The notes below the pieces were generated by a model, which was not told the origin of the DNA, did no database searches, and saw only the letters and a program-made list of their open reading frames with translations. Both the position numbers and the translations under genes were made by a program. This document shows positions 110 to 33,920 of a DNA stretch of 64,000 nt, piece after piece; the first letter of the stretch is position 1, and each line of letters opens with the position of its first letter. This DNA comes from a virus. Location: the IMG/VR virus record IMGVR_UViG_3300044972_000601, positions 1-64,000 of that record. One strand, written 5' to 3'.

Positions 110-253
110 TTATTTCTTTCCAATCTTGGTTACTACTTCTACTTTGCTCAATTGCAGTTGATAAAGGAATCTACGGTATGTCCGCAATGCTGCAATGCTC
201 ATTGGATCTGTCTCACCTTCAAGTTCAGCAAGTTCTTTAATTCGTTCGTTCAT
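110..253 (-). CDS. Small protein starting with the MNERIKELAE family N-terminus, then diverging
   Basis: Manual translation; start overlaps the stop of the upstream HFGVEE gene (ATGA). Confidence 0.6.
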   Translation of the reverse strand: MNERIKELAELEGETDPMSIAALRTYRRFLYQLQLSKVEVVTKIGKK

Positions 254-453
254 TCTTCAACTCCGAAATGTTCAGCAACTTTGCTTGCAATTACCGTTGA
301 TTTAACTTTATGACCTTCATATTCAGTGTCAGTTCGATAACATACATCCATACATTCTCGCACAATCAACTGGGCGAACTTTTCCAAGTCAATGTTGTAT
401 TCTGAATAACGATGGTAGCATTGTTCAGCAAGTTGTTGAATTCGTTCGTTCAT
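250..453 (-). CDS. MNERI/HFGVEE-family mini-protein
   Basis: MNERIQQLAEQ...EKFAQLIVREC...HFGVEE; start reassigned to ATG at 453. Confidence 0.8.
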   Translation of the reverse strand: MNERIQQLAEQCYHRYSEYNIDLEKFAQLIVRECMDVCYRTDTEYEGHKVKSTVIASKVAEHFGVEE

Positions 454-569
454 AAAAACCACTCCATGTAAATCCAGGCCACAATGCAAGCAACATTGAA
501 CCATACAGCAAACAACACCATGTAGAGCATCACCTGAGCCCGCCGTCCTGCTTGTTCACCTTCGTTCAT
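450..569 (-). CDS. Small single-TM hypothetical protein
   Basis: MNEGEQ...VMLYMVLFAVWFNVACIVAWIY; ATGA-coupled to both neighbours. Confidence 0.55.
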   Translation of the reverse strand: MNEGEQAGRRAQVMLYMVLFAVWFNVACIVAWIYMEWFL

Positions 570-784
570 TCTTCAACTCCTAATGTTGCGGGATTATGAT
601 CTAGACGGTTACCGTTATCGTCTGAATAGAAGGTGGCATCATCGTCTGTTATTGTAACACACAAATCGCTATGAAGCAAGTCATAATCGGTGAACTCACC
701 CAAGTCTGTGTACACACGAAACTGGTACTTGTCCAGGGCTGTGTATATTAAATGGCCCTCTACTCCGTCTGCTGATAGTTTCAT
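566..784 (-). CDS. Hypothetical protein ending in the family LGVEE junction
   Basis: MKLSADGVEG...; start overlaps stop of 781..975. Confidence 0.7.
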   Translation of the reverse strand: MKLSADGVEGHLIYTALDKYQFRVYTDLGEFTDYDLLHSDLCVTITDDDATFYSDDNGNRLDHNPATLGVEE

Positions 785-975
785 TCTTGTGTCCTTTGTG
801 GGTAATAGTAATAACAATAAGGCCTGTTGGTGTTCCAATCTCCAGTCATGCCATCCAAATCCTGTAGGCTATCCACAGCGCGAGCTGTCATGCTGTCATG
901 CACAATCCATGGAGTGTCACGCCTTGCCCGCAGGTATTGCTTGAGATAGATCCGGCTTTGTTCCAGCCGATTCAT
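781..975 (-). CDS. Hypothetical protein
   Basis: Coupled ORF in the minus-strand operon. Confidence 0.55.
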   Translation of the reverse strand: MNRLEQSRIYLKQYLRARRDTPWIVHDSMTARAVDSLQDLDGMTGDWNTNRPYCYYYYPQRTQE

Positions 976-1063
976 TCTGTATCCGTTCTTTTATCTTCGT
1001 TGGAGCGATATGCCATAAAGAACACACCCACGACAAATCCCATTACTAATCCCCAAAAGAAAC

Positions 1064-1255
1064 TCATAGTTCAACTTTAATTTTATCTTTGGGAATCTGG
1101 TTATAGGGCATGTTGTGTTTGAGGCTCTCTTCCATGATATGAGCCAAGTCATCTTCAAATTTTGTATATCCGGGATTGGCTCGTAGTCGTTGCCAAAATG
1201 GACTATTGGTGTCATTGCTGAACACTTCCTTGATACTGGTTTTATATGCCTTCAT
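1064..1255 (-). CDS. Hypothetical protein (ends KVEL, like the family junction)
   Basis: ATGA overlap with 1252..1458. Confidence 0.65.
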   Translation of the reverse strand: MKAYKTSIKEVFSNDTNSPFWQRLRANPGYTKFEDDLAHIMEESLKHNMPYNQIPKDKIKVEL

Positions 1256-1458
1256 TCTTCAACTCCAAAACGGTCTTGAATTCTTTGTTCAATCTCATAG
1301 CATCTATCCAGCGCCCAGTCATCGGGTTCAGAAATGTTTCCTACATTATGTGCAATATCCATACATTCCCGAACAATCAACTCGGCGAACTTTTCTGTGT
1401 TAAACCCACATTCAGTTTCAGATTGTTTCATCAATTCTTTGAGCAGTTTATAGTTCAT
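1252..1458 (-). CDS. MNERI/HFGVEE-family mini-protein
   Basis: EKFAELIVREC...RFGVEE. Confidence 0.8.
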   Translation of the reverse strand: MNYKLLKELMKQSETECGFNTEKFAELIVRECMDIAHNVGNISEPDDWALDRCYEIEQRIQDRFGVEE

Positions 1459-1700
1459 TCTTCAACTCCGAAATGTTTTAAAATCTCTTCTGCCAATTCT
1501 CGCCTACCCCTATTGTAGTCAGATACGCCACCAACTACGACATTTTTATATTGTAATTTAACACATTCTTTGACAATCAGTTCGGCTAATCTATCAATCC
1601 GGCTAAGAAAAGCTGGGGCTGGTATGTTATAAAACCCCATGTCCTCGCCGTAGCTGACAAGCCCAGCTTCCTCAAGCAAGTCTTTAATTCGTTCGTTCAT
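1455..1700 (-). CDS. MNERI/HFGVEE-family mini-protein
   Basis: MNERIKDL...LAELIVKEC...HFGVEE. Confidence 0.85.
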   Translation of the reverse strand: MNERIKDLLEEAGLVSYGEDMGFYNIPAPAFLSRIDRLAELIVKECVKLQYKNVVVGGVSDYNRGRRELAEEILKHFGVEE

Positions 1701-1942
1701 TCTTCAACTCCGAAATGTTCTCGAATCTCATCACCCATGGTTCCGCCACCGTTTGATTTTTCACGCAGGATAAAATCCACTTTACCAGCACATTCCTTTA
1801 CAATCAACTCGGCAAACTTTTGGTCATTATCTCTCTGAAACGCATAGTGCGCTTCCGGGTAAGGTATTTTGTTTCCTTTAGCCCAGTCTGCTCTAACTTC
1901 TGCTCTAGCCTGTTCAGCAAGTTGTTTAATTCGTTTATTCAT
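1697..1942 (-). CDS. MNERI/HFGVEE-family mini-protein
   Basis: MNKRIKQLAEQA...KFAELIVKEC...HFGVEE. Confidence 0.85.
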   Translation of the reverse strand: MNKRIKQLAEQARAEVRADWAKGNKIPYPEAHYAFQRDNDQKFAELIVKECAGKVDFILREKSNGGGTMGDEIREHFGVEE

Positions 1943-2133
1943 TCTTCAACTCCGAAATGCTTCAACACTTCACCGCCAATATCTTGTTCATTTGTATCTT
2001 GTGCCCAACTAGCACGATTGGCGCATTCCCGCACAATCAACTCGGCGAACTTTGCTACATCTTCAAATGGGACTGTCCCTGTTCCGTCAAATAATTTTGC
2101 TTGGTAAGCAAGTTTTACAAATCGGTCGTTCAT
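1939..2133 (-). CDS. MNERI/HFGVEE-family mini-protein
   Basis: MNDRF...KFAELIVREC...HFGVEE. Confidence 0.85.
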   Translation of the reverse strand: MNDRFVKLAYQAKLFDGTGTVPFEDVAKFAELIVRECANRASWAQDTNEQDIGGEVLKHFGVEE

Positions 2134-2360
2134 AGTTCAACTCCAAAATGGTGTTTAATCTTTTTAACAGTGTCCTTGTCATGTTCCTTTAATGCCCGAA
2201 CTCTTTCGTTGGCAAATGGCTCATGTGGGTTTAGTATCATATACTTTTGATCCACAAACAATTCTGCACATTCCCGAACAATCAACTCGGCAAACTTTTT
2301 TGTCTCAATTGTAAGCTCTAATTCAGCCTCTGTGGCAAGTTCTCGAATTCGTTGGTTCAT
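2130..2360 (-). CDS. MNERI/HFGVEE-family mini-protein
   Basis: MNQRIRELA...KFAELIVREC...HFGVEL; start reassigned to 2360. Confidence 0.8.
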   Translation of the reverse strand: MNQRIRELATEAELELTIETKKFAELIVRECAELFVDQKYMILNPHEPFANERVRALKEHDKDTVKKIKHHFGVEL

Positions 2361-2473
2361 GTGCATACTCCAGTAGTTCGGTGTATGATAGTGTATTCGG
2401 GTATGGTGACCACACTGAGCAATACAATCCACAACAAGGTGGCTGTGATGATGCCCAAGCAGAACTGTTTCAT
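2357..2473 (-). CDS. Small membrane protein
   Basis: MKQFCLGIITATLLWIVLLSVV; ATGA-coupled on both sides. Confidence 0.55.
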   Translation of the reverse strand: MKQFCLGIITATLLWIVLLSVVTIPEYTIIHRTTGVCT

Positions 2474-2805
2474 GCCAATTCCAATTGCTTAACGTGTTTG
2501 CAAGCACCACGATAGGTGTAGCCTGGGCAGGTGCATGTGCCCGCTGATGTGTCCACAGTGTAGGTTTGACCTTTGCTGCCCTCAACTGACACCACGTGGC
2601 TGGCCACAACAGGTGTTTCAAATGGATTGGGCGAGACCACGTCAAACTTACGTGCTCGTCGATCAAAGCCTTTGATGGGCGATTTGAAGTAAAATGGCAC
2701 AGTAGTACCTGAGCGTATGTAAGCAATCAGTGTGTTGCCATCCAGCAGATAAGTGTGATTGGCAGTGTTACCTGGCCACGCAGTGGTTTCCAATAGGGCT
2801 TGCAT
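2470..2805 (-). CDS. SWIM zinc-finger protein
   Basis: C-terminal YTVD...CTCPGYTYRGACKH (CxC...CxH); first gene after promoter 2834-2862. Confidence 0.7.
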   Translation of the reverse strand: MQALLETTAWPGNTANHTYLLDGNTLIAYIRSGTTVPFYFKSPIKGFDRRARKFDVVSPNPFETPVVASHVVSVEGSKGQTYTVDTSAGTCTCPGYTYRGACKHVKQLELA

Positions 2806-2833
2806 AAAGAACTCATGTAGTTGGTATGTGATG

Positions 2834-2862
2834 ATTATAGCAGGTGTGGCCCGTGAAGTCAA
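2834..2862 (-). promoter_or_regulatory. sigma70-type early promoter driving the leftward operon
   Basis: TTGACT-17bp-TATAAT on the minus strand. Confidence 0.8.
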
Positions 2863-4671: not shown

Positions 4672-4774
4672 ATTATAACACGTTTTGGGCACAGTGTCAA
4701 ACGTGTTAGCAAAGACCCTGTTAGCAGTGTGGGTATTTTTTTGACTTGACGTTTTGGGCATTGTTTGCTATAAT
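4672..4774. promoter_or_regulatory. Divergent sigma70 promoter pair
   Basis: Minus: TTGACA-17-TATAAT (4700-4672); plus: TTGACG-17-TATAAT (4746-4774). Confidence 0.85.
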
Positions 4775-4779
4775 ACACT

Positions 4780-5103
4780 ATGATGAAAACAAAACGAACT
4801 GCCCGTAAAGACTGCAACTACGTTATCTACGTAGCCGAGCACAACGGCTCTGCTTACATTGGACTCACCCGTAAGGGCACTGTAAGCATCGCCAAAGCTG
4901 TCAAAGAACGGTGGCGTAAGCATATCAGCAGAGCCCGGCACGAGGACAGAGACTGGGAACTGTACAAGTACATCAAATCGGGCAACTGGGACGGATGGAC
5001 TCATACAGTACTAGACATCGTGCGTGGCCGTGCTGAAGCGTATGCATACGAGCGTGAGCTTGTAAAGCATATGGAACCCGAGCTGAATGACCAGTACCTT
5101 TGA
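4780..5103 (+). CDS. GIY-YIG family nuclease
   Basis: VIY...AYIGLT...RWRKH...E...PELN motif order. Confidence 0.75.
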   Translation: MMKTKRTARKDCNYVIYVAEHNGSAYIGLTRKGTVSIAKAVKERWRKHISRARHEDRDWELYKYIKSGNWDGWTHTVLDIVRGRAEAYAYERELVKHMEPELNDQYL

Positions 5104-6928: not shown

Positions 6929-7143
6929 CAGTTAGATAAGAGTTAAAGGTTACCCACACCGTTAGGCACTGTAAGACGCGAGCACAGAGGGCACTCTACG
7001 CAATCTTACAGTGTATGAAATAGGAGCAAAAGCTCTGGAGATGCGGCGGAGCATGTGGGAAGTAATGACCGTCAAGGCCCGTGAGAGATGCGCTTACAGG
7101 TAGACATAGATTGACAATGGTTCCTTTAGTTCTTTTCTAACTG
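6929..7143 (+). ncRNA. Candidate ~215-nt multi-stem structured RNA
   Basis: 21-bp closing stem 6929-6949/7123-7143 with nested helices; own promoter; followed by tRNA. Confidence 0.65.
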
Positions 7144-9450: not shown

Positions 9451-9705
9451 ATGATTACAGCAGACACACTAGAGGTTCTAACAGATTTTGGACCACAGTA
9501 TCTAACCAGAGCCGCACAGGATGCAGGCTACAGAGGTCCTAACTTCACATCGTGCAAGTTCCTGGGCATCACTAATGGCGGCCAGTTCTGCTACATGGGT
9601 GTCTTCCAAGTAGAGGGCGGTACTGACAGCACAAAGGTCTTCCTTACATATGACCACACAGAGGATAAGGTCTTTGCAGACGTTCAGTTGACAGACTGGG
9701 CTTGA
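9451..9705 (+). CDS. Early hypothetical protein
   Basis: AAGGAG SD. Confidence 0.75.
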   Translation: MITADTLEVLTDFGPQYLTRAAQDAGYRGPNFTSCKFLGITNGGQFCYMGVFQVEGGTDSTKVFLTYDHTEDKVFADVQLTDWA

Positions 9706-10225: not shown

Positions 10226-10413
10226 GCAAGATGGCCGAACTAGCATACGATATCGAGCAACTATACATCGAGGGCCTGCATCCTACAAAGATTGCCAAAG
10301 AGCTCGACTGTCCGTTGACAGTGGTCTACGATTGGTTGGAATCATGTAGCTTGGAAGCAGATGTTGCGGAAAAGCCACAGGATGAACCTTACAGCCCTTA
10401 CTTGGGCGCTTGA
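10222..10413 (+). CDS. Small HTH-like hypothetical protein
   Basis: GLHPTKIAKELDCPLTVVYDWL resembles a helix-turn-helix. Confidence 0.6.
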   Translation: MSKMAELAYDIEQLYIEGLHPTKIAKELDCPLTVVYDWLESCSLEADVAEKPQDEPYSPYLGA

Positions 10414-10463
10414 CACTCTGGGCTTTTGGTTGTATAATTACTACATACAGACAGGAGCACACA

Positions 10464-10604
10464 GTGAAAATCATAATCAAAGTACCAAAGAAGCACAGAG
10501 AACACATCATCCTGTTCTGTACAGGCACACCTTTCCGGCAGAAGGTTGTGCAGAGCAAGATCCAATACCGTCGTCAACCCAAACACAAAGGACGCGAGCA
10601 ATGA
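10464..10604 (+). CDS. Small basic hypothetical protein
   Basis: GTG start with AGGAG SD after promoter 10410. Confidence 0.6.
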   Translation: MKIIIKVPKKHREHIILFCTGTPFRQKVVQSKIQYRRQPKHKGREQ

Positions 10605-10816
10605 ACGAACGAATTGATGAATTGTGGCAAGAGGCAGTAGACGCCACGTGGATTGATAATTCTAAGTCTGCTCACGAAAAGTTCGCCGAGTTGATTGTGC
10701 GGGAATGTAAAGAGAACTTTGGTAAAGTTTGGTATGAACAAGGTTTAGATATTCGTGGTGCAGAATTTGGTAAGTTTATGACACGGTTTGAAGAACATTT
10801 CGGAGTTGAAAAATGA
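10601..10816 (+). CDS. MNERI/HFGVEE-family mini-protein
   Basis: MNERIDEL...EKFAELIVREC...HFGVEK. Confidence 0.85.
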   Translation: MNERIDELWQEAVDATWIDNSKSAHEKFAELIVRECKENFGKVWYEQGLDIRGAEFGKFMTRFEEHFGVEK

Positions 10817-11010
10817 ACGAACGAATTAACCTACTGTTGGAACAGTCCGGCCTCCAGCCTTATTACGATGCACAAGAGGGCCAAATCGAAAAGTTCGCCC
10901 AGTTGATTGTGCAGGAATGTATGGAAGAAGTTATGACTTACCAGCATCACCGCAATCCTACTATACCGTTCATAGTAGAAGATATTAAAAAACATTTCGG
11001 AGTTGGTTGA
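10813..11010 (+). CDS. MNERI/HFGVEE-family mini-protein
   Basis: MNERINLL...EKFAQLIVQEC...HFGVG. Confidence 0.85.
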   Translation: MNERINLLLEQSGLQPYYDAQEGQIEKFAQLIVQECMEEVMTYQHHRNPTIPFIVEDIKKHFGVG

Positions 11011-11065
11011 CAGGACTAGCCAATCCTGCTATAATACACACATGGACAACGCAAAAGGAAGCAAG

Positions 11066-11360: not shown

Positions 11361-11585
11361 ATGATCGTACACAATGTTCAAGTCTACCCAGTCTATGCTG
11401 GTCATATCAATGATCACAAGGTCATCAGAGAGGAAGAGTTTAACTCCCGTGAGGATGCACTCATGTGGGTAGGATACTACAACCAGCATGAGCACTGGAA
11501 CCAAAATGATTGGGCTGAGAACGGCAACGGCGTCGTTGCTGTCTACACTGGCATGATTGATACTGAAACAGGAGAGAATCTATGA
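11361..11585 (+). CDS. Early hypothetical protein
   Basis: Follows a cassette promoter, AGGAG SD. Confidence 0.75.
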   Translation: MIVHNVQVYPVYAGHINDHKVIREEEFNSREDALMWVGYYNQHEHWNQNDWAENGNGVVAVYTGMIDTETGENL

Positions 11586-11818
11586 ACGAACGAATTCTAA
11601 AACTTGCCAAGCAGTCGGGTATGCGATCACCAGACTTGTTTAAACTTACAGTATCTCATATGTCCACAGATACCTTAGAAAAGTTCGCCGAGTTGATTGT
11701 GAAAGAATGTGTTAAATTACAATATAAAAATGTCGTAGTTGGTGGCGTGTCTGACTACAACCGGGGCAGGCGAGAATTGACGGAAGATATTCAAAAACAT
11801 TTTGGAGAAAACCTATGA
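11582..11818 (+). CDS. MNERI/HFGVEE-family mini-protein
   Basis: MNERILKL...EKFAELIVKEC...HFGENL. Confidence 0.85.
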   Translation: MNERILKLAKQSGMRSPDLFKLTVSHMSTDTLEKFAELIVKECVKLQYKNVVVGGVSDYNRGRRELTEDIQKHFGENL

Positions 11819-28385: not shown

Positions 28386-29852
28386 TTATTTTTGCCAGTC
28401 TATCTTTTCTAATGTGAAAGGATACTTAGCGTCCTTGTAAAATTTCTTACGTTCAGTAAGATGCCGCTTGGCATATTTGCAGGTGCTGGTTATGTCCCAG
28501 ATTTGGACAAAGTCCTTGTCTTCTGCTTTTCTAATGCCTCGCCCAATGCTCTGTATAACTCGGGTAAAGCTCTTTCCGGATTCCAAAAGAACCAAATTAA
28601 AAATCCTAGGGATATTAATACCCACAGCGGCCACACCGTAAGTCGCCACAATAATCTTGTTAGTGCTTGTTTTAATTTCGTCATATTCTTCTTTGCGATC
28701 CTTAGTTTTTACCTCACCCGAGACAAAAACTGCGTCTTCAATTTCGTTGATGATAAATTTGCCTGAGTCAATTCTATTAACTAATACTAGTGTGTTGCCT
28801 GATTGTGATATTTTTTTAATTAGTTTACTAACATAAATCATCCTGTCATCGTCTGTGACAAGATATTTTAATTCGTCTGGATATGATGTAAAAACCGGCA
28901 AGTCTACCATTTGAACTATGTTTACGTGACATGCACTAAGCACACCTATATCTTGTAGCTCGTGTGCTTTGATGCCGCCAACTACTGGACCAAGACTTGC
29001 AAAAATTTGTTCGTATTCAAATTTTTCCTTGGGCACAGTTCCTGTCAATCCCCAACGAATGGGAGCATTACACAAGTTTTGTGTGAGTAAATTCTTCAAC
29101 ACTTCCGCTTTGGCCATGTGTACTTCGTCAACAATAACAGTCTTAACTCCGTCGAGAAATTCAGCAAGTGTAACAATGTCATGCTCGTGATTTTTACTTT
29201 TCTTATCGAGAATGTTAAGGCTTTGCCAAGTGCAAATGGTGTGTGTCTTACCTAAATCTTTGCGATCTCCGTAATAAACACCAACATCTAATCCCACTGC
29301 AATAAAGTCTTCTTCTGTTTGTTCCACTAGAGATTTATTAGGAACAATAGTAATTGTACGACCATATTTTTCTGCAAGCTGACTTAATGTTGCTGTTGTA
29401 ATGGTCTTTCCAGCACCTGTTGCAATCTCTTGTAGTGCTTGAGTATTGGTTAAAAATGTGTTAATTGCATCAACTTGATAGTCACGCAACATAATAGGCT
29501 GACCTGCTTGCTGGTGACCCTTTGGCCATACTTTGCCTTGGTCTGCCCAATAAGATTCTGTCACAGGTTCAAAAGATATCTTGCTAGTGGTACGTAAGTC
29601 GTCTACTTCTTCAACACTAATTCCCAGTTTGTTTAATACGTCTAAGATAGTTTCAAGCTGACTAAGATAACCGTTGCCGCCAAGCCCAAACAAACTGACC
29701 ATTCCGTCCCAACGTCCAAGTTTGTATGCAGGATGATATCTTGCATATGGATTTTCATACTTAAATGCGTTGGCTAATTTCTTGCGAGCATCCAGTGGCA
29801 AATTCTCTAACTTAATGTTAACTTCGTCTTTAATTACTAATCGTATTGTCAT
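28386..29852 (-). CDS. uvsW: UvsW-like SF2 helicase
   Basis: LRDYQ, ATGAGKT, DEVH, GLTGT, QSIGRG. Confidence 0.9.
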   Translation of the reverse strand: MTIRLVIKDEVNIKLENLPLDARKKLANAFKYENPYARYHPAYKLGRWDGMVSLFGLGGNGYLSQLETILDVLNKLGISVEEVDDLRTTSKISFEPVTESYWADQGKVWPKGHQQAGQPIMLRDYQVDAINTFLTNTQALQEIATGAGKTITTATLSQLAEKYGRTITIVPNKSLVEQTEEDFIAVGLDVGVYYGDRKDLGKTHTICTWQSLNILDKKSKNHEHDIVTLAEFLDGVKTVIVDEVHMAKAEVLKNLLTQNLCNAPIRWGLTGTVPKEKFEYEQIFASLGPVVGGIKAHELQDIGVLSACHVNIVQMVDLPVFTSYPDELKYLVTDDDRMIYVSKLIKKISQSGNTLVLVNRIDSGKFIINEIEDAVFVSGEVKTKDRKEEYDEIKTSTNKIIVATYGVAAVGINIPRIFNLVLLESGKSFTRVIQSIGRGIRKAEDKDFVQIWDITSTCKYAKRHLTERKKFYKDAKYPFTLEKIDWQK

Positions 29853-31589: not shown

Positions 31590-31825
31590 TAAAAGTCCAA
31601 TTCTGGTGTATCGTCTTCGTCTCCGAAGCCATCGTCATTGAGATAATATGCAATAGCTTGATCAAGTGTTTCATCAACACCCGTAGCTGCTTGCAATGCT
31701 TTGTCAGGTACTCCAAAATCTGCAAGTAGATCAATATAGCGTTCTGCTACTGTTTCTAATTGTTTCTTATCGAGATACTCGACAAAGTTTAACCAGATAT
31801 CACCAATTTGTGTTTCATTCAACAT
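31589..31825 (-). CDS. Small acidic hypothetical protein
   Basis: Between uvsX and uvsY. Confidence 0.7.
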   Translation of the reverse strand: MLNETQIGDIWLNFVEYLDKKQLETVAERYIDLLADFGVPDKALQAATGVDETLDQAIAYYLNDDGFGDEDDTPELDF

Positions 31826-32867
31826 CTTCTGTTTTCTCCTCAGGAATAGTAGGTGTAGATTTAAGATGATAATTATTCATTATCATATCTAATTTATCAT
31901 CTTTCCATTCTTTTCGGTAGAATAAGTGTTCTTCTCCGGAGGTCGGGTCAACATACTTTAGTCTGTTGCCTTGTTGTGTCAGCAGTCCTTGTTTTTCAAA
32001 AAGATCTACAAGACCACTGTAAGGACTCATGCCTGTTGAATATGGGATTTCAATTTGCAATGACTCGAAAGGTTTTGCATAACGTGTTTTCATAATCTTG
32101 CAGGCAGCACGAATGCCATGTACTTCGCTTGTCTTAACACCATTTTCATCAGTCTTAAGTTTGAGTTTTTTCATAGCAACAACAATACTAGAAGCATAAA
32201 CAAATCCTTGTCCACCACTAATTTTGTCATCTGGATCAAACATGTCTTGGCTTGCGTATGTGTGATTGGTACATACCATACCCACATTATAACTGCCAAA
32301 CATATTAACACAATTACGAACTAAACTGGTAAGTGCTTTAGGTTTACGGCCCATGTCTCCCTTCATATCACCAGCTTCGAACTGGTTAATGTCAGTAGGG
32401 GTAAGCAACATACCCAATGAGTCTATGACAAATAAGACTTTAGGACGAGTCTCCATTGCTTTGTACTCTTTCATGAACTCACTGATGGTTTTAGCAACAT
32501 CATCAATCATAGCCATGTTGAGTTTAAGCAATTTATCTTCACTTGTATCTACACCAAGTGCATGTAGCCATTTTTCGTCAAGTGCATTTTCGCTATCAAT
32601 CAAGATAACATAGATACCTTGTTCCTGTGCATTTTTAACAATGTTTGCAGAACAAATGTAGCTCTTACCTGCACCAGATTCACCGGCAAACACAGTAACC
32701 TTGCCCAAAGGAATACCCTTGTGAAAGTCGCCACTAATAAGGGAATTCAAGGCATAATTGCCAGTGCCTACCCAGTCTGTAGGATCGTTAAATCCTACAC
32801 CCAGACCGTCAATTGACTTAGTCAAGGTTTTTCTAAATTTCGATAAATCGAAGGCTTTTGTAGCCAT
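31815..32867 (-). CDS. uvsX: RecA-like recombinase UvsX
   Basis: GESGAGKS, IDSENA, VIDSLG, SGGQG, KTR. Confidence 0.93.
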   Translation of the reverse strand: MATKAFDLSKFRKTLTKSIDGLGVGFNDPTDWVGTGNYALNSLISGDFHKGIPLGKVTVFAGESGAGKSYICSANIVKNAQEQGIYVILIDSENALDEKWLHALGVDTSEDKLLKLNMAMIDDVAKTISEFMKEYKAMETRPKVLFVIDSLGMLLTPTDINQFEAGDMKGDMGRKPKALTSLVRNCVNMFGSYNVGMVCTNHTYASQDMFDPDDKISGGQGFVYASSIVVAMKKLKLKTDENGVKTSEVHGIRAACKIMKTRYAKPFESLQIEIPYSTGMSPYSGLVDLFEKQGLLTQQGNRLKYVDPTSGEEHLFYRKEWKDDKLDMIMNNYHLKSTPTIPEEKTEDVE

Positions 32868-32933: not shown

Positions 32934-33920
32934 TTACTTCTGACGATTACGAATCATTGCCAAGATGTCTTGGGCACGATTGTCACCGCCACTTGCATCA
33001 GCCGCTGGTGCTGGTGCAGGAGTAGCTTTTGCTACTGGAGCAGGTGTGTCATCTTCGTCATGGCTTACTGCTGGTGCAGGAGCCGCTCTAGGAGTAGATG
33101 TCTTTTGTGGATCACCAGTGTTCTGGCTCATGCCAGCTGGCTTGAAGTATTGACCCCAACGTTCCATATCATACGGCTCGCCATCAACTGATGCTTCAAA
33201 CATTTCCTTCATAACCTTGAGCTCAACATCAGTTGGCTTTTTAGGCAAGAAGTCGCTCAAGTTAAACAAACCATGTTGTTTAATTGCCGCTTGTTCTGTA
33301 TCGTTCAATGGACGCTCACGACGTGACCAAGTACTAGTAGAGTAGTCAGCGTAACCGCCTTTACTACCTTTCTTCATACGATAGTCAATACCGTGTACGT
33401 AATCTGTTGGCAAGTCTTCCAACTCTGGATCAACCAATGCCGCACGGATTGATGTAAAGATCTGAGGACCAATAATAAATCTACGGATTGGATTTGCTGG
33501 AGTTTCTTTTTCAGCAAGGCCGTCTTCAACAACGAATCCTTGGAAAATATAACTACGCTTTTTCCAGTACTTACGGCCCATGTCTTCCAATGCTGGGTCT
33601 TTGAACCACGCACGGACTTCTGACAAGATCGGGCATGTATTGCCTTCGCCATACATTTCTACGCATGGAACTTGTACTGTGATTTGTTTGCTTTCTGATT
33701 CACCTTTGATTCCAGCGAATGGCAATTTGATCATTGCACGTTCAACCCAGAAAAAAGTGTTATTGGCGTTACCATCTGGTAGGAAGCGGAGTGATGCTTC
33801 GTCGCCTTCTTTGAGATTCCAGAATGGATAAATGGAATTGTCTCCACCTGTTCTGTTACCGTCTGAACCTTTCGATTCTGCTGCCTTAAGTTTTGCTCTG
33901 ATTTCTGCTAATGTAGCCAT
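32934..33920 (-). CDS. 32: Single-stranded DNA-binding protein (gp32-like)
   Basis: LRFLPD, C...CPI, YWKKRSY, GGYADYSTS. Confidence 0.88.
   Translation of the reverse strand: MATLAEIRAKLKAAESKGSDGNRTGGDNSIYPFWNLKEGDEASLRFLPDGNANNTFFWVERAMIKLPFAGIKGESESKQITVQVPCVEMYGEGNTCPILSEVRAWFKDPALEDMGRKYWKKRSYIFQGFVVEDGLAEKETPANPIRRFIIGPQIFTSIRAALVDPELEDLPTDYVHGIDYRMKKGSKGGYADYSTSTWSRRERPLNDTEQAAIKQHGLFNLSDFLPKKPTDVELKVMKEMFEASVDGEPYDMERWGQYFKPAGMSQNTGDPQKTSTPRAAPAPAVSHDEDDTPAPVAKATPAPAPAADASGGDNRAQDILAMIRNRQK

Follow-up and report, generated by a model that had tools for sequence, protein, structure and literature searches.

The window analysed here, a stretch of 64,000 nucleotides that corresponds to positions 1 to 64,000 of the 108,205-bp virus contig recorded in IMG/VR as IMGVR_UViG_3300044972_000601, carries nine paralogous mini-genes, which probably belong to a large family of phage early genes whose halves are reshuffled at short in-frame anchors within and between unrelated phages. 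In the model that we favour, each gene is laid out as a start anchor, a first variable segment, a middle anchor, a second variable segment and an end/junction anchor. Crossovers are seen to fall in the anchors, and half-genes of ~60-140 nt assort near-independently of each other and of their neighbours and pass between phages with no other DNA in common. The genetic mosaic pattern itself is strongly supported by sequence comparison.

A sequence-only reading of this DNA had proposed nine paralogues that share start, middle and end motifs with variable stretches between them. The open reading frame (ORF) listing and a profile search recovered every one of them, as proteins of 64-81 aa encoded six on the minus and three on the plus strand, and the alignment bore out the motifs, with a start block MNERI..L, a middle block (E)KFAELIV(R/K)EC and an end block HFGVEE, separated by two segments that vary in sequence and length among the nine proteins. 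At the DNA level, the middle block corresponds to a 29-nt sequence, anchor B, and the end block to a 32-nt sequence, anchor A, which reaches into the following gene. When the nine-gene profile was searched against the whole 108,205-bp contig, it returned exactly these nine genes and one marginal ORF at 110-253 (E 0.03); all nine family copies fall inside the window part of the contig. The claim that unrelated ORFs also use anchor A held as well, as seen in the last two of the following features.

250..453, minus strand: g250, family gene of 67 aa
1252..1458, minus strand: g1252, family gene of 68 aa, start reads MNYKL
1455..1700, minus strand: g1455, family gene of 81 aa, with a diverged anchor B at ~1564-1592
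1697..1942, minus strand: g1697, family gene of 81 aa, modelled with AlphaFold2
1939..2133, minus strand: g1939, family gene of 64 aa
2130..2360, minus strand: g2130, family gene of 76 aa, ATG at 2360, first family gene of the leftward array
10601..10816, plus strand: g10601, family gene of 71 aa, hybrid, modelled with AlphaFold2
10813..11010, plus strand: g10813, family gene of 65 aa, end reads HFGVG
11582..11818, plus strand: g11582, family gene of 78 aa, mosaic partner of g1455
110..253, minus strand: ORF that is only partly a family member, opening with the start anchor MNERIKELAE and continuing with a different body
566..784, minus strand: ORF with an unrelated body, C-terminus LGVEE, bearing the junction block

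Both anchors are real. Anchor A occurs in four copies at ≤3 mismatches, exactly at 239-270 and 1686-1717, and anchor B in seven copies at the same threshold; shuffled sequence gave no copy of either. Their positions are as follows.

239..270, minus strand: anchor A, junction block, exact 32-mer
1686-1717, 1928-1959 and 10796-10827 (plus strand): further copies of anchor A
566-580, 1252-1266, 1455-1469 and 2130-2144: shorter junction copies
2024..2052, minus strand: anchor B, encoding KFAELIVREC, exact 29-mer
353-381, 1364-1392, 2269-2297, 10679-10707 (plus strand), 10891-10919 (plus strand) and 11681-11709 (plus strand): further copies of anchor B
~1564-1592 and ~1791-1819: diverged copies of anchor B

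Anchor A encodes HFGVEE, a GGAG Shine-Dalgarno sequence, an ATGA stop/start overlap and the beginning of MNERI, so that the merging of C-terminus, ribosome-binding signal, stop and next start that had been proposed for this block can be read directly from it. The junction GGAGTTGAAGAATGA was found (≤2 mismatches, ATGA kept) at eight gene boundaries in the contig, where GGAG stands 7 nt ahead of an ATG that shares bases with the preceding stop TGA. Two of the eight stand beside non-family bodies, namely 566-580 after the ORF ending in LGVEE and 1252-1266 before ORF 1064-1255. ATGA overlaps with the Shine-Dalgarno sequence in the last codons of the upstream gene are present at 250, 566, 1252, 1455, 1697, 1939, 2130 and 10813. 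Since the junction holds both the stop/start overlap and GGAG, whatever sits downstream of it would be translationally coupled, and the genes are predicted to be coupled in the manner of operon genes. Moreover, the three anchors share one reading phase in every copy, so that a crossover within any of them would yield an intact hybrid gene.

Mosaicism is seen within the window itself, where g1455 and g11582 lie on opposite strands at a distance of 10 kb. Between anchor B and the end anchor they agree at 89-95% of positions, whereas the stretch ahead of anchor B shows no relation. For comparison with other viruses, at least 491 loci in IMG/VR encode relatives, and 80 of these (numbered with the prefix L) were fetched. 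Against its nearest relatives (L001-L004 and L022) the window shares only anchor-bounded blocks of 110-170 nt at 86-96% identity, and the edges of high-scoring segment pairs coincide with the anchors. The C-half of g250 is 93-96% nucleotide-identical to genes in L001 and L002, its N-half being unrelated to those genes. Similarly, g10601 combines the N-half of L002 gene 6844 (96%) with the C-half of L002 gene 6605 (86%), the gene before 6844, and ORF 110-253 has a 79% DNA match in L076. Variation of the arrays between related contigs, which had been suggested as a check, was seen as differently assembled genes, and there are collinear contigs that differ by one replaced segment, for example L061/L079 and L034/L029.

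Half-sharing was scored at ≥80% nucleotide identity over the segment 1 half (V1) or the segment 2 half (V2). The first set of 205 distinct genes (20,910 pairs) yielded 54 pairs with one half in common and none with both, the other half being at background in 48 of them. In pooled V1-sharing pairs identity holds at ~0.93 through the final base of anchor B and drops to ~0.3 beyond it, and the profile of V2-sharing pairs is the reverse. With 618 distinct genes, 230 V1-sharing and 189 V2-sharing pairs were obtained, 412 pairs in all, of which 7 share both halves, whereas 26 of 37 pairs from control gene families at these loci are concordant. The incongruence between N- and C-halves that the cassette proposal predicts is plain in both gene sets. 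Across the junction, too, linkage is lost (1/22 and 1/17). In ten genes both halves are matched elsewhere, and the partners of the two halves always differ; one module found in eight genes has eight different partners, and altogether 479 V1 and 488 V2 modules occur in 611 combinations. In most module-sharing loci the common DNA amounts to 1-3% and is the module itself, which includes the 108-kb contig when compared with L004 and L046.

Shared modules are usually not identical, differing by 2-15%, and their differences are mostly synonymous, with a ratio of nonsynonymous to synonymous divergence (dN/dS) of 0.14-0.18 and a synonymous difference (pS) of 0.30. The modules are functional coding units under purifying selection, with synonymous drift in them that is not found in the anchors. 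Two genes either have just one half in common or are identical throughout both, the identical cases stemming from five groups of loci. This pattern indicates that arrays are stable in the short term and that reshuffling sets in before divergence has reached a few per cent.

The anchors are conserved as DNA. In 196 distinct full-length genes on other contigs, retrieved by a degenerate pattern neutral to codon choice and then ordered by protein similarity, single codons dominate the anchor positions.

Arg4: CGA in 154/173 genes
Ala29: GCC in 159/189 genes
Glu30: GAG in 142/162 genes
Leu31: TTG in 169/192 genes
Ile32: ATT in 178/186 genes
Gly68: GGA in 184/192 genes
Val69: GTT in 167/180 genes

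Background usage in the long ORFs of the loci and of this genome is 0.09-0.12 for CGA, 0.16-0.20 for GCC, 0.20-0.25 for GAG, 0.26 for TTG and 0.21-0.26 for GGA; the share in the anchors is 0.89 against ~0.1 for CGA and 0.84 against ~0.2 for GCC, and within the variable parts of the family genes, too, the anchor codons are in the minority. Codon bias was therefore rejected as the source of anchor identity. The synonymous sites of the anchors, which the sequence-only reading had named as a test of its proposal, are far from saturated, with rare codons near-fixed. Position profiles resolve three sharp-edged blocks, ATGAACGAACGAATT at the start, ~23 nt plus GAATGT in the middle and CATTTCGGAGTTGAAGAATGA at the end, and the spacer TTGAAGA between GGAG and ATG is conserved as strongly as the signals.

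Exchange of the halves would proceed by short-homology recombination or template switching through general phage or host recombination functions, and the rare-codon identity of the anchors would be kept by that exchange, whether by conversion across the pool or by selection for compatibility. The earlier suggestion that UvsX, UvsY and UvsW genes in the window supply the recombination fared only partly well. A UvsX-like recombinase, a single-stranded DNA-binding protein (SSB) and a DNA helicase were found and are candidate suppliers, whereas the UvsY family PF11056 had no match here and none in control genomes either.

31815..32867, minus strand: UvsX-like recombinase (PHROG 97, E 1e-69)
32934-33920: gp32-like SSB
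28386-29852: DNA helicase

A DnaB-like helicase and a primase are among the window's genes too; in the ±6 kb flanks of 77 loci no enzyme family is consistently linked to the arrays. Perhaps the anchors are evolved standard connectors, kept down to their rare codons so that modules of ~100 nt swap in frame between unrelated phages and the half-gene instead of the gene serves as transfer unit of a virome-wide library, a step beyond reshuffling that we consider possible, falling just short of probable. If this is true, the library would be combinatorial across the virome, with hundreds by hundreds of modules in the sample already.

Several points weigh against the favoured model of reshuffling at the anchors. 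The comparison sequences are all short-read metagenome assemblies. In the anchors of random genes the longest exact run has a median of 11 nt and reaches ≥20 nt in only 15%, and with such short exact homology classical strand-exchange recombination would be inefficient; the breakpoints could be rare illegitimate events, retained by selection only where they lie in anchors. Anchor identity is 0.828 within a locus and 0.829 between loci (permutation p ~0.58), which means that the consensus is universal and not genome-specific, and concerted evolution within genomes was rejected on the same figures. Identical arrays recur in different samples (the same phage, in five groups of loci), and as anchors are in addition no more alike within a locus, there is no sign of rapid or programmed shuffling inside a genome. 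The fold searches given below returned generic helical matches only. Of the recombination-driven cassette library once proposed for this array, crossovers at the anchors and free assortment of the halves stand, but nothing points to a programmed generator within the genome, the scale being evolutionary and virome-wide instead.

An alternative, which we regard as rather unlikely, is that the anchors are RNA or DNA signals, for re-initiation, for an optimal start region or as the site of a regulator or nuclease, and that shuffling is a by-product. The junction with GGAG 7 nt before ATGA and the start block in the initiation region would suit such a role, and so would the attachment of the junction to non-family ORFs (the upstream gene has no anchor B at 61 of 217 junctions) and the universal rather than genome-specific identity of the anchors. 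Anchor B, however, lies mid-gene and distant from any start, and when 119 genes were folded by partition function, none of the anchors had a constant pairing partner; anchor B paired mainly with variable sequence. A conserved RNA structure linking the anchors was rejected on this ground. A promoter and terminator scan likewise placed neither consensus within the anchors, and conservation of the spacer TTGAAGA to the same degree as the signals also counts against this alternative. That the genes are ordinary tandem paralogues which arose by duplication and point mutation, with motifs kept for the protein only, seems extremely improbable to us. The copies do stand in tandem, the motifs lie in predicted helices and the ratio of nonsynonymous to synonymous polymorphism (pN/pS) is below 1 in the anchors, yet synonymous rare codons are fixed across unrelated contigs, identity changes step-like at the anchors, both halves are shared so much more rarely than in the controls, and modules 85-100% identical occur in loci with nothing else in common.

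The mosaics might also be metagenome mis-joins at the repeated anchors or at shared modules, to which the short-read origin of all data would lend itself. The runs with window DNA are lake-water metagenomes (20 DNA runs); RNA runs contained only 5-10% of the sequence words. Logan contigs (k=31) break at the anchors with an array word depth 3-7x that of the flanks, which means that repeats complicate assembly here. Logan "joints" such as 272>1911 and 10827>11677 have short sides around unread sequence, and their most likely origin is other family genes of that sample. Assembly chimerism is nevertheless unlikely, and as the general source of the mosaics we give it very little weight: reads and the final k of the usual assemblers exceed the ~20-32 nt of an anchor, shared halves are rarely identical, differing by 2-15%, and the mosaic pair g1455/g11582 stands in one contig, 10 kb apart and on opposite strands. 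In addition, the exact hybrid protein g10601 is present on at least nine contigs from three sources, and the identical arrays in five groups of loci come from different samples. A dedicated site-specific system, such as an integron-like integrase, a homing endonuclease or another nuclease, that recognises the anchors and moves cassettes is in our view highly improbable. Although the anchor blocks are sharply bounded and constant in sequence, and 12 of 77 loci have a GIY-YIG-like ORF close to the array (4780-5103 in the window), no other family occurs within ±6 kb in more than 12 of the 77 loci, save a cluster of antisense shadow ORFs (20 loci). The carrier contigs, from 4 kb to 374 kb in IMG/VR, have moreover unrelated neighbourhoods.

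The closest likeness in gene plan is to the gp38 adhesins of T-even phages, which carry hypervariable segments between conserved glycine-rich motifs, the motifs forming a structural core and the segments being independent, easily interchanged determinants of specificity (Trojet et al. 2011, PMC3157838). As in gp38, short conserved motifs within one coding sequence separate the variable segments. Nonetheless, gp38 is a single late virion gene per genome with four segments, whereas the present genes are multi-copy and early, encode helical proteins of 65-80 aa and have two segments; unlike in gp38, the end motif doubles as the ribosome-binding site of the next gene, and exchange takes place between phages with no other common DNA. 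An adhesin of the gp38 glycine-rich motif/hypervariable segment (GRM/HVS) type was rejected, as the blocks are not glycine-rich and the products are helical early proteins that match neither Pfam nor PHROGs and are related to gp38 neither in sequence nor in fold. With regard to exchange, the likeness is to the promoter-early stem-loop (PeSL) cassettes of T4-type phages, short repeats of hyperplastic early regions that are points of homologous exchange between small unrelated ORFs and whose nearby copies can recombine to excise circles (Arbiol et al. 2010, PMC2839356; Comeau et al. 2014, PMC4122927). A PeSL is an intergenic promoter-terminator unit that moves whole ORFs, whereas the anchors are coding, without promoter or terminator, and one of them is mid-gene, so that the exchanged unit is half a gene. 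Identity with PeSL was rejected since the anchors are intragenic and have no promoter hexamer pair, no terminator and no constant hairpin. Given the step in identity at the anchors and the incongruence of the halves, the anchors are exchange points that function like PeSL without being one. The system resembles both the gp38 and the PeSL cases and is a member of neither.

In the bacterial contact-dependent inhibition (CDI) "VENN", Rhs and pilE/pilS systems, a constant block beside a variable coding segment permits replacement of the segment by recombination. Those systems have one expressed locus, silent or orphan donors and one variable end, whereas here all copies look expressed (ATGA-coupled), two slots are variable and the donor pool spans multiple genomes. 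Integron cassettes were rejected on the absence of a linked integrase family in the ±6 kb flanks of 77 loci and of a consistent hairpin in the anchors; a diversity-generating retroelement was rejected because the segments are unalignable and length-variable, module differences are mostly synonymous and no enzyme gene recurs in the flanks. Phage mosaicism is usually described at the level of the gene or domain, and guidance by boundary sequences has been debated since the modular theory. Susskind and Botstein are said to have proposed in 1978 that linker sequences at module boundaries guide the homologous exchange of phage modules; later genome comparisons mostly favoured illegitimate recombination plus selection. 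Their model concerned whole genes or blocks, whereas the modules here are sub-genic, with boundaries conserved at synonymous sites. The family offers a clean and quantifiable case, with coding boundaries of 20-30 nt conserved at synonymous sites, units of ~100 nt, near-nil linkage between adjacent units and exchange across phages without other common DNA. As such it makes the question of boundary guidance testable.

Structure prediction agreed with the small scaffold protein that had been expected, giving three-helix models in which the variable parts form two hairpin tips. AlphaFold2 modelled g10601 with a per-residue confidence (pLDDT) of 86 and a predicted template modelling score (pTM) of 0.73 (helices 3-15, 21-46 and 54-67), and g1697 with pLDDT 88 and pTM 0.78 (helices 3-21, 30-62 and 69-77). 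Both models run helix-loop-long helix-loop-helix with anchor B in the middle of the long helix, and additional segment 1 residues lengthen the first hairpin in these two models. Given the predicted helix lengths, the start, middle and end blocks would meet at the centre, with the variable hairpin tips pointing away from it. The members are mostly acidic (median net charge -6, isoelectric point 4.9), and Cys36, Phe67 and Gly68 are invariant, with His66 near-invariant. Foldseek gave no match against the PDB at E≤0.001, and none in BFVD at the same threshold, where nearly all rows are uncultured-phage proteins without a name, those at the top being apparently members of the family. The best VIA-align Z was 6.5, in a range common for helical proteins. 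Three repressors of the CsoR/FrmR/CstR type were aligned at Z 5.1-6.3 and root-mean-square deviations of 3.8-5.1 Å, a likeness that the invariant Cys and near-invariant His make a lead only; a homodimer prediction scored 0.37 (mark 0.42). The two variable tips would carry specificity, perhaps for host or defence proteins early in infection, and from the setting, size, charge and diversification our guess is an early adaptor that binds the host or counters its defence.

The family is large and almost wholly unnamed. A profile search of a collection of 5.8 billion proteins gave at least 8000 matches, and an exhaustive search gave 7,606 clusters at 50% identity; none of them bears a Pfam domain, and the few named members are "hypothetical protein" entries of uncultured phages. 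Of the fetched loci, 63 of 80 hold 2-9 copies, often as ATGA-linked tandems. Pfam gave nothing above cut-off for the nine window proteins or for 144 members, PHROGs no family match, the GenBank phages (50,697 records) no DNA or tblastn match, the PDB sequence profile a best E of 0.24 and the ESM Atlas unnamed viral clusters only; in a paper library searched by motif and topic, no description of the family was found. In GTDB (185,579 species genomes), 18 short contigs matched, all from metagenome-assembled genomes of mixed taxonomy with mostly lake or freshwater-type names. They are probably mis-binned phage DNA, and no host can be drawn from them. The exact proteins g10601, g11582 and g10813 recur on 9-15 contigs from 3-4 sources, which indicates that the genes are real. 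Thousands of unannotated early proteins of lake viromes become candidate factors of host takeover or counter-defence with modular specificity. The contig studied here is linear and ~30% complete according to CheckV, so that nine copies are a lower bound, and it may be a piece of a jumbo phage, since several other family carriers are contigs of 300-370 kb.

As to the setting, the leftward array runs from 2360 to 110 and the rightward family genes follow promoters at 10410 and 11308, the leftward and rightward blocks diverging near 4,700. Two promoters stand directly before family arrays.

2834..2862, minus strand: sigma-70-type promoter matching the consensus at 11/12 positions, ahead of both the SWIM-like ORF and the leftward array
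10410..10438, plus strand: sigma-70 promoter of perfect consensus, upstream of g10601

Perfect TTGACA-17-TATAAT was found at five plus-strand gene boundaries, with the first hexamer at 9688, 10410, 11007, 11308 and 12014. Because consensus sigma-70 promoters precede the arrays and the genes overlap as ATGA, the family genes are predicted to be early, polycistronic and ATGA-coupled. The repeated consensus promoters of the window are PeSL-like and separate from the anchors. In Logan contigs from 3-4 lake runs, promoter-flanked segments follow one another in a different order, as at 7143>12033 and 7144>9451, an arrangement reminiscent of PeSL-type shuffling. The end anchor of g10813 is truncated where it enters the consensus promoter (GGAGTTG|GTTGACA, 11001-11035) and resembles the promoter's GGGGTTGACA flank. 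The C-half module common to g1455 and g11582 (124 nt, 89%) forms an inverted repeat around ~10 kb that include the divergent early promoters, and recombination between its two copies would invert this segment.

Several neighbouring ORFs deserve mention. The leftward operon is headed by ORF 2470-2862 (minus strand, 130 aa), whose C-terminus has a SWIM-zinc-finger-like CxC...CxH motif (TCTCPGYTYRGACKH) and whose sole PHROG match is PHROG 17897, of unknown function. Within the array, the mini-ORFs 450-569 (minus strand, 39 aa) and 972-1067 (minus strand, 31 aa) encode hydrophobic, predicted membrane peptides; 450-569 has junction blocks on both sides and DNA matches of 91-92% in L002/L022 and 75-78% in L020/L043, and has the look of a separate cassette. 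ORF 10464-10604 (plus strand, 46 aa), which follows the promoter at 10410 and precedes g10601, is very basic, with a GTG start after AGGAG and a stop that overlaps the g10601 start as ATGA. The rightward promoter at 4746 is followed first by the small GIY-YIG-like ORF 4780-5103 (plus strand, 107 aa). Antisense ORFs at 1246-1518 (plus strand, 90 aa) and 1820-2107 (plus strand, 95 aa) run across family genes and exceed the real genes in length. They have a motif of the HNQLGELF type, which is the reverse translation of anchor B, and the matching "family" is the one seen in 20 loci. Such shadow ORFs, together with the anchor repeats, may mislead gene callers and assemblers in these regions.

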